From contig CAVVMG010000001.1 of NCBI GenBank assembly GCA_963749415.1, positions 1,676,745-1,740,744 of the forward strand: 64,000 nt of DNA. Reading direction: 5' to 3'. The position numbers were made by a program, and so were the translations under genes. Under the pieces are notes generated by a model. It saw nothing but the letters and a program-made list of their open reading frames with translations. It did not search any database and was not told the origin of the DNA. The DNA comes from an uncultured Acidobacteriota bacterium (GTDB taxonomy: Bacteria; Actinomycetota; Acidimicrobiia; Spongiisociales; ZC4RG35). Shown one piece after another: positions 1-5,632 of the stretch (the first letter of the stretch is position 1; each line of letters begins with the position of its first letter).

Positions 1-2
1 GG

Positions 3-71
3 AGCGCCGCTCTGATCAAAGGGATTCGCAAGGTGGCAGACGCCAAGTTGGTGCGGGGGATCTTCCCCTAG
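3..71 (+). CDS. 3' end of a gene entering from the left edge (...SAALIKGIRKVADAKLVRGIFP*)
   Basis: Open frame 3 ending at TAG 69-71, convergent with the next gene; too short to identify. Confidence 0.5.
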   Translation, partial: SAALIKGIRKVADAKLVRGIFP

Positions 72-75
72 GCCT

Positions 76-861
76 CTATGAGGGCTCAGCGAACGCCGGG
101 CAGATCCCTTTGAACGAGCACCAGTCACACAGACGGCCAGGACGGGTCGGGTAGCGCTCGGAAGCCATCGCCCGCTCGATTGCATTCCACAGTGCGCGCA
201 GCTGCCCATCCATTGCGTCGAGCTGCCGGTCATCGATCGCCAGCCGGTACTCGGTTGGGCCGTTCAGGTAGAGGAGCCTGATCTCTTTGGGCGTCTCCCC
301 GGTCCGTCGCCGGATGAGCAGGGCATAGATCTTGAGGGCGAAGAAGGCGGGGAGGGCATAGCGCTCCGGAGGCGCTTTCCCCGTCTTGTAGTCCGTGATG
401 ACCAACCGGCCGTCACGGTCGCGATCGATCCGGTCGAGGATGCCGCGGATGACGATGCCATCGAGATCCTCGAGCATGTCGAGCTCCCGATCGACCGGGT
501 CGAGCGACTTGGGATCTTCGATGCCGAAGTAGTTGGCGAGCAGCTCCATCGACTCCATGCCCCACAGGCGCTCGGCCTCGGTGTCTTCGAACAGCCCTTC
601 GAACTCCTCGTCGCCACGGAGCTCGGTCCAGGCCTCACGGAAAAGGTCGTAGAGCAACGCCGGGGAGCGCTCCCCGGCGGGATGGTCGAACAACCGCTGC
701 AGGGCGAGATGAGCGGTCGTGCCCCTCGCCTGGTAGACCGATGTCGGCTCGGGAAGGCGATCGATTGCCCGGAACTTGAACAGTTGGGGGCAGGTCTTGA
801 AGTCCCCGGCCCGGCTTGGGGAGAGGGTCTCGAGGCGGGGCAAACCCAATTCAACGGTCAC
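76..861 (-). CDS. PD-(D/E)XK nuclease, RecB-family/Cas4-like exonuclease with probable Fe-S cluster
   Basis: LSPS N-terminus with Cys, GILDRID and ITDYKTGK nuclease motifs, C-terminal CDWCSFKGIC. Confidence 0.85.
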   Translation of the reverse strand: MTVELGLPRLETLSPSRAGDFKTCPQLFKFRAIDRLPEPTSVYQARGTTAHLALQRLFDHPAGERSPALLYDLFREAWTELRGDEEFEGLFEDTEAERLWGMESMELLANYFGIEDPKSLDPVDRELDMLEDLDGIVIRGILDRIDRDRDGRLVITDYKTGKAPPERYALPAFFALKIYALLIRRRTGETPKEIRLLYLNGPTEYRLAIDDRQLDAMDGQLRALWNAIERAMASERYPTRPGRLCDWCSFKGICPAFAEPS

Positions 862-915: not shown

Positions 916-943
916 CGCGAAAAGAATCGGCAGGGCGCGAAAA
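916..943 (+). repeat. Pair of CGCGAAAA direct repeats, 20-bp period; second pair at 1198-1225
   Basis: CGCGAAAA at 916, 936, 1198 and 1218. Confidence 0.8.
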
Positions 944-960
944 CTCGAATGCGATCAGGG

Positions 961-989
961 TTGAAATCCAATTGCCGACTTCGTACTTT
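961..989 (+). promoter_or_regulatory. Sigma70/SigA-type promoter, predicted TSS about 996-997
   Basis: TTGAAA (961-966), 17-bp spacer, TACTTT (984-989), directly upstream of the first hairpin of the structured element. Confidence 0.7.
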
Positions 990-996
990 CCCGTCT

Positions 997-1685
997 ACCG
1001 ACACGGGTTCGCCCGGGTCGGGGAAGGAGAGGCTTCGGCTCCTCCGGATTGCCACCAGCTGGGGGCCCGCTTTCCCGGCAGGTGGCTCGAGAGCCCCGAG
1101 AGGGCTGCGGCTTCGGCCGGAGCTCCCTCGGGGTTTCTCGCGTTCGGACGCAGCGGTCCCCTTCCTGGCCTGGGAGAAGTCTGCAATCGCACGGGATCGC
1201 GAAAAGCAATCGAAGATCGCGAAAACCAATCGTGCTTCACGTTTGCCTCGGTCCATGGCGCGGTCTACGTTGCCGGTCACGCCACAGGGGAGACCCTGCG
1301 GCGACCTGGATTGTGGGTACGGAACGGCGAAAGCCGGGCCGGGAAGAATTCCCCGATGCGGGGCCCGGAGCCAACGGGAGACTGTGGGCTCAGGGTTTGG
1401 CCGACGGGCCGAACGGGGATCCTTCGGGATCGTCGGGCGGTCAATCGGCCGGCGGATCTTCGGATCCGCAGCCTCCCTGGAAACGGGGAGGAGCGATCAC
1501 CGGATCGCAGCGGTCTTCGGATCGAGGCAGTCCAGTGAGCGCACGTCGCGGCTTCGGCCACGACGAAATTCCCGATCGGAGTTGGGTCCCCGGCCCGACA
1601 CCGAACGGGTCGAGAGCCCCGAGAGGGTTGAGGCTTCGGCCGATGCTCCCTCGGGGCCTTCTCGCGTTTCTCCCCCCGCAGGCCT
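997..1685 (+). ncRNA. Candidate large structured non-coding RNA or giant 5' leader, family not recognised
   Basis: Seven cUUCGg-capped stems plus one gUUCGc stem, GAAA and GAGA tetraloop stems, long-range pairings 1167-1179/1667-1684 and 1306-1312/1529-1535; no credible protein in any frame. Confidence 0.75.
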
Positions 1686-1712
1686 CATCGCCCGATGGGT
1701 AGCCTCGGGCCC

Positions 1713-2334
1713 ATGGGATACCCGACGAAGCTGCTCAGCCCCGGTGAGGAGATCATCACCGAGTTCAAGCCTCATTGGCTGCAGATAGTCAAGGAGGTGC
1801 TGCTCACGGTATTGGTCGGAGTGCTGGTGATCCTGATCGCGGCCAACTTCTCTTTCACCGGACAGGGATGGGTGATCACCGCCCTCGTGGTGATCTGGTT
1901 CGTCCTGGTTGTCACCGAGTTCACCCGCTGGTGGACAACCCAACACGTGATCACCAATGAGCGGGTGATCCACCGCGCAGGGTTGATCTCCAAGCAGGGC
2001 AAGGAGATCCCGCTCGAGGTCATCAATGACGTTGCCTTCAAACAGGGTGTCATCGAGAGGATGTTCGGCTCGGGCGATCTGCTGATCGAGTCGGCGGGGA
2101 CCCATGGTCAGTCCCGCTACACCGACATCCCGAGCCCGGAGGCGATCCAGAAGACCATCTATGAGGCACGCGAAGTACGGATGGCGGAAATGCGCGGCGT
2201 CGCTCCGGCTCCCGCGACTGCTCCTGCAGACCGCGGCCTCCCAGCTCGACACTCTCTCCCGGCTCCACGACGAGGGCAAGCTCACCGAAGACGAGTTCGA
2301 GACGGAGAAGAGGAAACTGCTGGGGGGTGCCTGA
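1713..2334 (+). CDS. Membrane bacterial PH-domain (bPH_2) protein with C-terminal SHOCT domain; frameshift near 2231
   Basis: MGYPTKLL start, two TM helices, ITNERVIHRAG PH motif; SHOCT (SQLDTLSRLHDEGKLTEDEFETEKRKLL) lies in the +1 frame and ends in a TGA overlapping the next ATG (TGATG 2332-2336). Confidence 0.8.
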
Positions 2335-3945
2335 TGCCTCACATGCAGGACGACTTCCCGTTGAACCTGTCGACGCTCTACGACCGTTCCGTCTGGCTCC
2401 ATCCGAACCAGGAGATCATCTCGGTCGAGGCTGACCGTTCCCAGGTGCGCAGCAGTTATGGAGAAACCGATGCCCGGGTCCGGCGGCTGGCTACCGCCCT
2501 CGATGGGCTGGGAGTCGGTCGGGGCGACGCGGTGGCGACCTTCGCCTGGAACAACCGGAGACATCACGAGCTCTATTGGGCCACTGCCAACACCGGCCTG
2601 ATCTGCCACACGGTGAACATCCGGCTGTTCGCCGACCAGGTGGCCTACATCGTCAATCACGCAGGGGACCGGGTCATGTTCGTCGATCCCGACCTCGTCT
2701 CACTGCTGGCGCCGCTCGCCGGGCAGCTGGAGACCGTCGAGACCTATGTGGTCATGGGGCCGGAGGCCGACCCCGCGCTCCCGGGCTCCATCCCCTACGA
2801 GGACCTGATCGCCGATGTCCCCGAGCACGGCTCGTGGCCCGAGCTCGACGAGCGATCGCCGATGATGCTCTGTTACAGCTCAGGAACCACCGGCAACCCG
2901 AAAGGGGTGGCCTACACCCAGCGCTCCACCTACCTGCACACCATCTCCAACCTGGCCAATTACGCCATGACCGCCTCGGACAACGTGCTGCCCGTGGTCC
3001 CGATGTTCCACGCTTCGGCCTGGGGGTATCCATTCATGGCCGTGGCCCAGGGGGCCAAGCTCACCTATCCCGGGCCGGATCTCACCCCGGAGGGCCTGGT
3101 GCGCCTGTTCGAGGGCGAAAAGGTCACGTTCAGCGCGGGCGTGCCCACCGTGTGGCTGGGAATCAAGCAATACCTGGAGGCCCACCCCGAAGCCGACGTT
3201 TCTTCGATTCGTGCCTTCCTCTGCGGAGGGTCCGCCGTGCCCCGGGCGATGATCGAGTGGTTCTGGGTGGAGCGGGGGATTCGGGTAGTCCAGGGCTGGG
3301 GGATGACTGAGACCAACCCGGTGGCATCCACGGCGACGTTGAAACCGGAGATGGAGGAGTGGGACCTGCAACGACAGCTCGACTTCCTGGAGACGGCCGG
3401 GATGCCGATCGCGGGCCTCAAGGTGAAGATCGTGGACGACGTGGGCGAGGAGCTGCCCCATGACGGGGTCGCCTTCGGGGAGTTGTTGATCCGCGGGCCC
3501 TGGATCGCCGCCGAGTACTACCGAGACCCGCGCTCTGCCCGGTCATTCGAGGACGGGATGGCTGCGCACTGGTGATGTCGCCAAGATCACCCCCGAGGGC
3601 TACATCCGGATCACCGATCGGGCGAAGGATGTCATCAAGTCGGGTGGGGAGTGGATCTCGACCATCGACCTGGAGAACGCGATCATGGCCCACCCCGGCG
3701 TGGCCGAGGCCACGGTCGTCGGGCTCAAGCACGTCAAGTGGCAGGAGCGTCCGGCGGCGTTCGTGGTGCCCAACCCAGGGTCCGAAGTCTCCGAGGAGGA
3801 CGTGTTGGATTTCCTCGAGGACCGGGTGGCCAAGTGGTGGATGCCGGACAGGGTCGTGTTCATCGAGCAGATCCCGAAGACCGGCACCGGCAAGTTCGAC
3901 AAGAAGGTGGTCAGGGACCAGTACGCCGACCTGCTGCTGGACTAG
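2334..3945 (+). CDS. Long-chain fatty acid-CoA ligase (AMP-binding); frameshift at about 3555-3557
   Basis: YSSGTTGNPKG and QGWGMTE motifs; removing one base restores DGWLRTGDVAKITPEGYIRITDRAKDVIKSGGEWI and gives about 536 aa. Confidence 0.85.
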
Positions 3946-3964
3946 TGGAAAAGGCGTGCCGAGG

Positions 3965-4086
3965 GGCGTAGCCGTCGGGCCGACCGGCGTCTGTTTGCCC
4001 GAGGCGACGATAGGGACGAGAACTCGAGTTTCGGGCAGGCTGAGGGGCCGAGGGCAAAGTCGGCCCGCAATCCAAGCGGCTACGCC
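3965..4086. other. Nested inverted-repeat element of about 120 nt between convergent genes
   Basis: GGCGTAGCCG/CGGCTACGCC, GGGCCGAC/GTCGGCCC and TGCCCGA/TCGGGCA pairings; central palindrome AACTCGAGTT. Confidence 0.6.
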
Positions 4087-4100
4087 GCGGCGGGAAAAAC

Positions 4101-4361
4101 CTAAACCTCGATCAGCTGTCCCGAGGTCAGGTCGAGCACGAACTCCTTGTCGCTCTTGGAGTCTGCGATGAAATGGGCGAGCTTGGCGCCCTGCTGGCGG
4201 ACGACCCACCATGCGTACGCCTTGGAAGCGGTGGTGGCGAACTCCATCTTGGCCGTCCGGGCCCTCTGCACTGCTTCCATTTCCTCGGAGAATTCACCGA
4301 GGACGGTCTCGCTCGGTTCCGGCTGACCGGGCGCCTCGATGAACTCCACTGCCTCGAACAT
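4101..4361 (-). CDS. Hypothetical protein (86 aa)
   Basis: ATG preceded by GGAAGGGAG, GC3-rich codons. Confidence 0.65.
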   Translation of the reverse strand: MFEAVEFIEAPGQPEPSETVLGEFSEEMEAVQRARTAKMEFATTASKAYAWWVVRQQGAKLAHFIADSKSDKEFVLDLTSGQLIEV

Positions 4362-4427
4362 CGCACACTCCCTTCCTGCCTCCCACGCAGAGTGTAATCC
4401 GGTCACTGCCCGGGGTCGCCTACTTCA

Positions 4428-4843: not shown

Positions 4844-5632
4844 ATGCTGCTCGAAGGCAAGAAACTGCTGATAACCGGGGTGCTCACCGATGACTCGATT
4901 GCGTGGCATGCGGCGCGTATCGCCCAGGAGGAGGGAGCAGAGATCGTCGCCACCGGGTTCGGGCGCGGGCTTCGCTTGACCGAGCGCTCGGTGCAGAGGC
5001 TGCCTTCCGAGTGCCCGGTCCTGGAGCTCGACATCAACGACCCCGGCCAGGTCGACTCGGTTGTCGCCGACCTCGGCTCGCGATGGGGGCGGATCGACGG
5101 TGCTCTCCATGCCATCGCCTTCGCTCCCGATGACGCGCTGGGGGGCAACTTCCTCAACACCCCGGTCGAGTCGGCACAGACCGCTTTCGTCACCTCGGCT
5201 TTCTCCTACAAGACCCTGACCGTGGCTTTGCTACCACTCTTCGAGGCGGCCGGCGGTGGTGCCATGGTCACCCTGGACTTCGACAACACCCAGGCCTGGC
5301 CCGCATATGACTGGATGGGAGTTGCCAAGTCTGCATTGCAGAGTGTGACCAGGTACCTGGCCAAGGACTTGGGGCCAAAGGGGATCAGGGTCAATGCGGT
5401 GTCTGCGGGGCCGCTGCTCACAGTCGCCGCCAAGTCGATCCCGGGCTTCGACGCCTTCGAGAAGGTGTGGAGCGACCGTTCACCTCTGGCCTGGGATCCG
5501 ACCAACCCGGAGCCGGTGGCGCGAATGATCTGTGTGCTGCTCAGTGATTGGGCACCGATGACGTCGGGTGAGGTGATCCACGTCGATGGCGGTTTCCACG
5601 CCGTCGCCGTCGGGGAGGGCGAAAAGGCCTAA
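4844..5632 (+). CDS. fabI: Enoyl-ACP reductase (FabI/InhA type)
   Basis: ITGVLTDDSIA, HAIAFAP, YDWMGVAK, VSAGPL motifs; GGAGGAGG RBS. Confidence 0.92.
   Translation: MLLEGKKLLITGVLTDDSIAWHAARIAQEEGAEIVATGFGRGLRLTERSVQRLPSECPVLELDINDPGQVDSVVADLGSRWGRIDGALHAIAFAPDDALGGNFLNTPVESAQTAFVTSAFSYKTLTVALLPLFEAAGGGAMVTLDFDNTQAWPAYDWMGVAKSALQSVTRYLAKDLGPKGIRVNAVSAGPLLTVAAKSIPGFDAFEKVWSDRSPLAWDPTNPEPVARMICVLLSDWAPMTSGEVIHVDGGFHAVAVGEGEKA

Follow-up and report, generated by a model that had tools for sequence, protein, structure and literature searches.

Our study identified, between positions 916 and 1672 of the window (the whole 64-kb stretch of DNA that was analyzed), two conserved sibling genes for non-coding RNAs, RNA1 and RNA2, which match no catalogued family. 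Taken jointly with the steps of the mechanism proposed below, we consider it likely that this region consists of two adjacent genes for structured RNAs that are transcribed independently of each other. An earlier note on this DNA had described a single RNA of ~690 nt; that description is not supported, given a second promoter module inside it, an unconserved spacer between its halves, and the presence of the same hairpin at the end of both. The elements of the two units and of their flanks are collected in Table 1.

Table 1. Coordinates in the window of the two RNA genes, their predicted control elements, and the flanking genes.
Feature	Position	Strand	Remarks
PD-(D/E)XK nuclease gene	76-861	-	Upstream flank of the RNA region
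Unit 1 upstream element, two CGCGAAAA boxes	916-923 + 936-943	+	Kept upstream of RNA1 in homologues
Unit 1 predicted promoter, -35 TTGAAA / 17-nt spacer / -10 TACTTT	961-966, 984-989	+	Sequence reading
RNA1, ~150 nt	997-1146	+	34-sequence alignment A1; +1 predicted at A997
RNA1 P1	998-1021	+	
RNA1 P2	1026-1045	+	
RNA1 P3	1051-1086	+	Invariant apex GGGGCCCGCUUUCC at 1062-1075
hpA, CGAGAG-CCCCGAGAGGG...CUCCCUCGGGG-UUUCUCG	1088-1140	+	3' end of RNA1
Inter-unit spacer	1147-1196		Non-conserved (identity 0.34); gene-insertion site in other genomes
Unit 2 upstream element, two CGCGAAAA boxes	1198-1205 + 1218-1225	+	Unit 1 geometry
Unit 2 predicted promoter, -35 TTGCCT / 17-nt spacer / -10 TACGTT	1243-1248, 1266-1271	+	Homologue alignments
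RNA2, ~394 nt	1279-1672	+	31-sequence alignment A2; +1 predicted at A1279
RNA2 H1	1280-1303	+	
RNA2 H2	1305-1362	+	
RNA2 H3	1363-1396	+	
RNA2 H4	1398-1450	+	
RNA2 invariant block GGGGAUCCUUCGGGAUCGUC	1415-1434	+	
RNA2 H5	1451-1469	+	
RNA2 H6	1472-1491	+	
RNA2 H7	1493-1541	+	
RNA2 H8	1543-1563	+	
RNA2 H9	1569-1608	+	
RNA2 invariant block GGGUCCCCGGCCC	1584-1596	+	
hpB, second hairpin copy	1611-1664	+	3' end of RNA2
-10-like TAGCCT	1700-1705	+	7 nt before the bPH_2/SHOCT ATG (1713); outside the RNAs
bPH_2/SHOCT (PH-domain) gene, then AMP-binding (acyl-CoA) ligase	ATG at 1713	+	Downstream flank

Each of the motifs listed in the earlier note was recovered at its reported position. The TTGAAA and TACTTT hexamers proposed as -35 and -10 elements (961-966 and 984-989, with a 17-nt spacer) are present, and the pair is kept in homologues; the seven cUUCGg loops correspond to CTTCGG on the + strand at 1033, 1111, 1422, 1458, 1515, 1552, and 1634, all of which cap stems in the minimum-free-energy fold; the gUUCGc loop lies at 1007-1012, and the two GNRA stems, CAGGG-GAGA-CCCTG and CGGC-GAAA-GCCG, at 1285-1298 and 1325-1336. 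The proposed enrichment of this tetraloop also holds, with seven copies in 607 nt (1033-1639) against ~0.34 expected (Poisson P ~7e-8, by hand calculation); the whole window contains 71 copies on both strands, or ~0.55 per kb per strand. Strand asymmetry had been claimed as well, and we found no CTTCGG on the - strand within 1033-1639, while 30 homologous elements have 2-12 + strand copies compared with 0-3 in the opposite orientation. Folded as RNA, the + strand of 990-1690 reaches -400.9 kcal/mol (z = -8.7 against shuffles) and the - strand -352.6 kcal/mol (z = -4.2). The two long-range helices proposed before fared less well. Complementarity exists in both cases, but both arms of the first (1167-1179 with 1667-1684) fall in non-conserved spacer and trailer, and the second (1306-1312 with 1529-1535) is unsupported by relatives: the closest ones show uncompensated changes, and in most homologues its 3' half is deleted.

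Special attention was given to the conservation of the region in other genomes. A search with the nuclease protein, taking one genome per species, returned 80 loci, nearly all labelled as Acidimicrobiia or Actinomycetota MAGs, together with a few apparently mislabelled bins. In most of them the corresponding strand has a stretch resembling 862-1712, the typical locus has two hairpin copies between the nuclease gene and the PH/ligase genes, and the conserved order is nuclease, RNA1, RNA2, PH, ligase. Profile searches over ~200 Acidimicrobiia-related loci identified 46 in which both RNAs are present in full. Column identity is 0.88 in RNA1, 0.34 in the spacer, 0.74 in the second promoter module, 0.82 in RNA2, and 0.49 in the trailer. 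The two RNAs are co-oriented in 42 of the 46 loci, with gaps of 92-2359 nt (up to 250 nt in 20 loci, 250-1000 nt in 16, and more than 1000 nt in six), and the other four have an inverted RNA1. The gaps are filled with unrelated genes, most of which lie on the opposite strand. Reading of their ORFs suggests a membrane protein, deazaflavin-oxidoreductase-like and glyoxalase-like proteins, and a methyltransferase; at one locus (L008), three translated ORFs read as sulfur-metabolism-like genes.

The units also multiply and occur in other surroundings. One locus (L077) has five tandem units, each composed of a promoter block, a body, and the hairpin; four of them are near-identical and ~170 nt long, and one is ~400 nt long. 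The same hairpin ends units elsewhere, in one case close to a tRNA together with rpoD and dnaG-like genes, in another immediately behind a tRNA. A metagenome scan with the hairpin core returned at least 120 stretches and, among the matches listed, nearly all contigs that were long enough carry nuclease, PH, or ligase genes; no viral contig matched the hairpin pattern. This common neighbourhood, together with the lack of viral matches, indicates that the RNAs are chromosomal, bound to their locus, and widespread in Acidimicrobiia.

Both RNA bodies show the marks of selection on base pairing, as expected from the earlier proposal of a structured RNA on the + strand, which is borne out by covariation and by G·U pairs. 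RNA1 consists of three hairpins (P1-P3) followed by the 3' hairpin hpA (1088-1140) and CGUU. In the 34 sequences of alignment A1, 93.2% of the cells in paired positions are paired (39-64% in slid controls), and 19 of 51 pairs have changed on both sides, compared with 9.7 +/- 1.9 in shuffles, a value that none of 500 shuffles reached. UUCG and GNRA loops exchange among the homologues. The apex of P3, C-rich (GGCCCGCUUU) and invariant, resembles the seeds of Gram-positive base-pairing sRNAs; in a search for mRNA targets, the complement of this apex occurred in the window at chance frequency, with no enrichment. RNA2 folds at -239.7 kcal/mol (z = -7.4) into about ten consecutive local hairpins. 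Changes on both sides were found in 63 of its 136 pairs against 36.3 +/- 3.0 in shuffles (again in none of 500), and in the 31 sequences of alignment A2 86.2% of the paired cells are paired, against 34-50% in slid controls, over which the tested structure is somewhat favoured because it is the window's own fold.

Homologues with covarying stems, which the earlier note had proposed to look for, thus exist, and their covariation lies above all shuffles. It is important to note that the covariation in RNA2 is local. A loose scan of column pairs for long-range helices returned G/U-rich noise and a strict one only local hairpins, and neither the RNA2 fold nor the scans support multi-helix junctions or pseudoknots. 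We also considered the repeated GAUC-UUCG-GAUC hairpins as binding sites and rejected them, given that only one of the three (in H4) is invariant in sequence and the other two merely covary. In appearance, the invariant RNA2 helices are closer to sites of protein binding or tertiary contact.

The feature that unites the two genes is their 3' hairpin. The two copies in the window, ~53 nt each, form an internal direct repeat with 90% identity, and no further copy was found in the 64 kb. A comparison of 131 distinct copies showed an invariant core, CCCGAGAGGG / CUYYCUCGGG, together with basal and apical pairs whose covariation exceeds all 500 shuffles and all slid controls; the loops exchange between UUCG and GNRA. 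One pair is G·U in 130 of the 131 copies. On the opposite strand, invariant G·U pairs would turn into A·C mismatches, which identifies the + strand as the RNA strand; the CC/UU wobble variation opposite G likewise fits a + strand RNA helix only. The basal pair of hpB changes from C-G to U-A in 10 of the 31 RNA2 homologues. In addition, a fixed difference between the copies is found at one and the same pair, which is C-G in 32 of 34 hpA sequences and U·G in 30 of 31 hpB sequences. The persistence of this difference across genomes indicates that hpA and hpB are ancient paralogues whose similarity has been kept by selection and not by recent copying. These strong G+C-rich stems are followed in the window by the tails UUUCUCGCGUU and CCUUCUCGCGUUU, and in L077 by CUUUUUCGCGU. 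A terminator scan that needs at least 5 T in 8 called neither hairpin, the tail UUUCUCGCGU having fewer than 5 U in 8. The hairpin is probably a transcription terminator and a stabilizer of the 3' end.

Upstream of each RNA lies a module with an identical layout in both units, CGCGAAAA-N12-CGCGAAAA-N17-TTGnnn-N17-TACnTT-N7-A(+1). The CGCGAAAA boxes are 20-21 bp, or two helical turns, apart (20 nt from start to start in the window), and 17 nt separate the proximal box from the -35 element. The arrangement CGCGAAAA-N8-18-CGCGAAAA occurs twice in the 64 kb, both times at these units, and not at all in shuffles. Homologues of the first promoter keep TTGACG-N17-TACnTT. For the second unit, the alignments have a conserved block (1198-1271) with two TCGCGAAAA boxes, TTGnnn, 17 nt, and GGTCTACnTT, within which the -10 element falls, and a profile search with this module found it upstream of RNA2 in ~60 loci. 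The geometry common to both modules predicts A997 and A1279 as starts, and both positions are nearly invariant as A across homologues. A scan with the sigma-70 consensus called the promoter of neither unit, the -10 element matching TATAAT at 3 of 6 positions. The CGCGAAAA repeats are centred near -60 and -80, positions at which activators commonly bind in bacterial promoters. RNA1 and RNA2 are probably co-regulated through the CGCGAAAA direct repeats. The neighbouring genes encode a glutamate dehydrogenase, a UvrD-nuclease, an SDR, a GAF histidine kinase, a hydrolase, a Mur ligase, and Ddl; a search for an adjacent regulator gene showed no obvious DNA-binding partner among the neighbours examined. 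We found nothing relevant in the literature on the CGCGAAAA motif, on Acidimicrobiia ncRNAs, or on this locus.

The main alternative at the level of transcription is that one primary transcript of ~680 nt runs from 997 through hpA, either as a single large RNA or as a precursor processed into two. The units are adjacent and co-oriented in the window, as they are in 20 of the 46 loci overall, so that read-through from RNA1 to RNA2 is possible; in addition, the U tract of hpA is short and the whole region folds very stably. We nevertheless regard this reading as unlikely, since RNA2 is preceded by a complete and conserved promoter module, the spacer between the RNAs is non-conserved, as is the sequence of the proposed helix between spacer and 3' trailer, and no covarying long-range helix was found. 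Moreover, in 26 of the 46 loci the units stand more than 250 nt apart or RNA1 is inverted, often with opposite-strand genes in between, and a single functional 690-nt RNA is hard to reconcile with units that can be separated and inverted. The downstream genes raise a related question, given that the earlier note had also considered a giant leader of the PH/ligase operon. RNA2 could be a cis-acting leader or attenuator whose 3' hairpin governs read-through into the PH/acyl-CoA ligase genes, which would suit the preserved gene order and the presence, in many loci, of a co-oriented PH gene or ligase ~45-130 nt past RNA2. The PH gene, however, appears to have its own start signals: of 54 starts of first PH genes, 40 have a conserved -10-like hexamer, TANNNT (mostly GGTAGCCT), 6-9 nt ahead of the ATG, and no obvious Shine-Dalgarno sequence was seen by eye before this first gene, whereas the second PH paralogues have Shine-Dalgarno sequences instead. 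This pattern suggests a leaderless PH mRNA with its own promoter, of which RNA2 would then not be the leader. Opposite-strand genes also intervene between RNA2 and the PH gene in four loci (L012, L024, L033, and L042), and the hairpin is also found at the end of RNA1 and of units at unrelated sites, in tRNA and rpoD/dnaG-like surroundings. A cis-acting leader or riboswitch would lie always upstream of its gene, co-oriented and co-transcribed with it, and the units do not behave in this way, RNA1 being inverted in four loci. We therefore consider a leader function quite improbable.

Two further readings were considered. The hairpins might be DNA elements that flank cargo, like the REP/PATE-like ends of the IS200/IS605 type or attC-like sites, with the RNA features being incidental. 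It is true that an imperfect palindrome, present in two direct copies, brackets variable DNA, and that the genes adjoining hpA differ between genomes. However, the copies are not dispersed but confined to one syntenic locus per contig (two in the 64 kb), viral contigs do not match the hairpin, no transposase or integrase was found among the neighbouring genes examined, the invariant G·U pairs and the CC/UU wobbles fit an RNA helix of one strand only, and a predicted promoter and a covarying RNA body lie upstream of each hairpin; this reading is thus very improbable. The idea that the region encodes one or more small proteins deserves practically no credence. Long + strand ORFs of 188, 217, and 368 aa do cross it, but such ORFs are expected by chance at the local G+C content of 0.59-0.71, and Pfam has no match in the region. 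From one homologue to another the longest ORF changes strand and frame, indels come in multiples of three in 0/4, 0/8, 1/16, 1/20, and 2/21 cases, and substitutions in the helices of RNA1 and RNA2 are compensatory. A conserved protein frame, suggested before as a check on the RNA reading, was not found.

Two non-coding RNA genes being the preferred reading, we compared them with known families. At gathering thresholds, Rfam 15 has no family in the 64-kb window, including RNase P, tmRNA, SRP, 6S, 6C, and the riboswitches, and on eight further loci it reported tRNAs only. At E <= 10, the stretch 800-1800 gave chance hairpins (mir-185, F6, and mir-3085) that scored 17-20 bits, the cut-offs being 46-81. 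The novelty proposed earlier, to be checked against Rfam with GOLLD, ROOL, OLE, raiA, and HEARO included, is therefore upheld. As structured orphan RNAs rich in UUCG and GNRA tetraloops, GOLLD, ROOL, OLE, and raiA resemble the units described here; they differ in that none of their models matches even at E <= 10 and in that the units here measure 150 and 394 nt. A fold like that of GOLLD, ROOL, and OLE, in whose size class the region had been placed, is not supported: RNA2 has local hairpins only and no covarying long-range helix. We also rejected 6S RNA, whose long rod with a large central bubble is absent: the minimum-free-energy and centroid folds of RNA1 and RNA2 are series of local hairpins. 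Ms1 and 6S are RNAs that bind RNA polymerase in Actinobacteria and other bacteria (PMC9130861, PMC4191392); the reported neighbours of Ms1 are HAD-IB hydrolase and oxidoreductase genes (PMC9130861). We suspected Ms1 because an acyl-CoA ligase is nearby, and Ms1 is, like RNA2, a conserved structured RNA of several hundred nt from an Actinomycetota lineage in a syntenic intergenic region. The published synteny sets Ms1 apart, the flanks here being a PD-(D/E)XK nuclease and bPH_2/SHOCT plus AMP-binding ligase genes.

In architecture, the genes come closest to sibling sRNA pairs or arrays and, in the case of RNA2, also to CsrB/RsmZ; they have no homology to any of these, and the motifs that define those systems are missing. 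As in sibling sRNA genes, the two units share a 3' hairpin and a promoter module and are found separated or inverted elsewhere, their transcription being predicted. The OmrA and OmrB RNAs of enterobacteria come from adjacent sRNA genes with OmpR-dependent promoters and shared ends; they are ~80-90 nt long, Hfq-dependent, and have a 5' seed in common. The likeness lies in neighbouring genes with their own promoters (predicted for RNA1 and RNA2), the same upstream element, and near-identical terminal blocks that include a terminator hairpin (a putative one here). In RNA1 and RNA2, however, the bodies are unrelated, one of them is ~394 nt long and heavily structured, the sharing is confined to the 3' hairpin, and neither RNA is related in sequence to OmrA/OmrB; to our knowledge, Hfq is generally absent from Actinobacteria. 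LhrC1-5 of Listeria are multicopy tandem sRNAs with C-rich loop motifs under the response regulator LisR, their copies being near-identical and ~110 nt long. Tandem multiplicity (five units in L077), a putative common regulator site, and the C-rich invariant loop of RNA1 recall them, whereas the bodies of RNA1 and RNA2 are completely unlike each other and no targets were found here. CsrB and RsmZ are multi-hairpin sponge RNAs that sequester proteins. RNA2 resembles them in its approximately ten hairpins, overall size, predicted 3' terminator, and putative upstream activating sequence, and it differs in having no GGA-like repeated loop motif, in loops that are interchangeable between UUCG and GNRA, and in matching no Rfam family; as far as we know, CsrA is not known in Actinobacteria.

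Based on these observations, we propose how the locus may work. The CGCGAAAA repeats, at activator-like positions near -60 and -80, would be the site of one transcription factor, and its binding would switch on RNA1 and RNA2 together. Each RNA would start with a 5' hairpin and end with the sequence-invariant 53-nt hairpin and a U-rich tail. This 3' hairpin would terminate transcription and protect the 3' end. Its stem is invariant in sequence beyond what mere pairing demands, which makes it probable that a protein partner also uses it as a handle common to both RNAs. The RNAs themselves may act in trans through their invariant blocks, namely the P3 apex of RNA1 (GGCCCGCUUU) and the helices of RNA2 at 1415-1434 and 1584-1596, which could pair with G-rich mRNA sites or bind protein. 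A bolder version of this scheme is possible, and we hold it as rather doubtful: the 3' hairpin might be a dedicated Acidimicrobiia protein handle placed on unrelated bodies under one CGCGAAAA regulator, from RNA1 and RNA2 to the short L077 units and those next to tRNA or rpoD genes, with RNA2 representing a new class of large RNAs that bind protein or modulate RNA polymerase. If that were true, RNA2 would play in Acidimicrobiia the role that 6S, Ms1, or CsrB plays elsewhere.

Acidimicrobiia are abundant in soil and water and rarely cultured, and we know of almost no regulatory RNAs described in them. The locus contributes two strongly conserved structured RNAs (up to five in some genomes) that are absent from the catalogues. 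A dense run of tetraloop hairpins, as this region illustrates, can be a cluster of small genes and not one giant RNA. For the study of RNA-based regulation in this class, the locus may serve as an entry point, as it offers a precisely placed DNA motif, a candidate regulator site, with which to look for a transcription factor, a hairpin of unusually invariant sequence with which to look for a protein partner, and two RNAs that can be deleted.

Structured RNA units of this kind are not confined to the locus formed by the nuclease, RNA1, RNA2, PH and ligase genes. Our study identified units outside it in several other loci, and their bodies differ while their terminal hairpin is the same 53-nt hairpin that ends RNA1 and RNA2. 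One of them is located near a tRNA and genes resembling rpoD and dnaG, and another lies directly 3' of a tRNA, with a single GTCGCGAAAA box. In locus L077 five units, each with promoter, body and hairpin, stand side by side; four of the five are near-identical RNAs of ~170 nt each, and the fifth is ~400 nt long. The body of the ~170-nt units differs from RNA1, and it carries a GGGUCCUUCGGGAUC hairpin that resembles H4, the RNA2 hairpin at 1398-1450. The number of CUUCGG hairpins varies as well: the RNA2 homologues of L033, L042, L051 and L071 have 11-12 instead of 7, the additional ones having arisen where short hairpins of the GAUC-UUCG-GAUC type, in the variable central part of RNA2, were duplicated in tandem.

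Coordinates of genes and RNA units in the window and in other loci (L handles)
Feature	Location	Strand	Remark
bPH_2/SHOCT gene	window 1713-2334	+	frameshifted, break near 2228
Acyl-CoA ligase (AMP-binding) gene	window 2334-3945	+	break near 3555
Three inserted genes between RNA1 and RNA2	L008 2955-5620 (locus coordinates)	opposite	
bPH_2 paralogue or ~446-aa gene	L003, L004, L005, L011, L049, L053 (RNA2-PH gene interval); L008, L009, L016, L027, L035, L037		
UvrD-helicase/PD-(D/E)XK nuclease gene (AddA/AdnB-like), 1028 aa, and glutamate dehydrogenase gene	L001 8210-11296 (locus coordinates)		past left edge of window
Units outside the nuclease/PH locus	L136 ~5150-5440 (also L097, L131); L135 ~1400-1660; L123 ~3960-4420		
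Five tandem units	L077 6891-8742		reverse-complement coordinates

The gene content around the RNAs also changes among relatives. Read from their translations, the three genes inserted in L008 seem to encode a sulfide:quinone-oxidoreductase-like flavoprotein along with a DsrC/TusE-like and a DsrE-like protein. In many genomes a second bPH_2 paralogue lies directly 3' of RNA2, and in others RNA2 is followed by a co-oriented gene of ~446 aa, whose product, judged by its sequence, looks like an alpha/beta-hydrolase plus cyclase. In L001, the closest relative, the UvrD-helicase/nuclease and glutamate dehydrogenase genes are found just past the RNA-flanking nuclease gene, which encodes a stand-alone Cas4/AddB-like enzyme.

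The two genes that follow RNA2 in the window each show a break in their reading frame. In the bPH_2/SHOCT gene, where the frame of 1713 encodes the PH domain and that of 2104 the SHOCT domain, 2 nt are missing at ~2228 in comparison with L001 (90.6% nucleotide identity), which means that the assembly is wrong here or that the gene is a pseudogene. The ligase gene has 1 additional base at ~3555 relative to L001 and L002, and its C-terminal part therefore runs on in a different frame (ORF 3685-3945). As for the start of the PH gene, GGTAGCCT is conserved 6-9 nt 5' of the ATG in 40 of the 54 PH-gene starts from L001-L080 (window 1700-1715), whereas the downstream PH paralogues are preceded by Shine-Dalgarno sequences and not by GGTAGCCT. 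The PH-domain gene itself is apparently leaderless.
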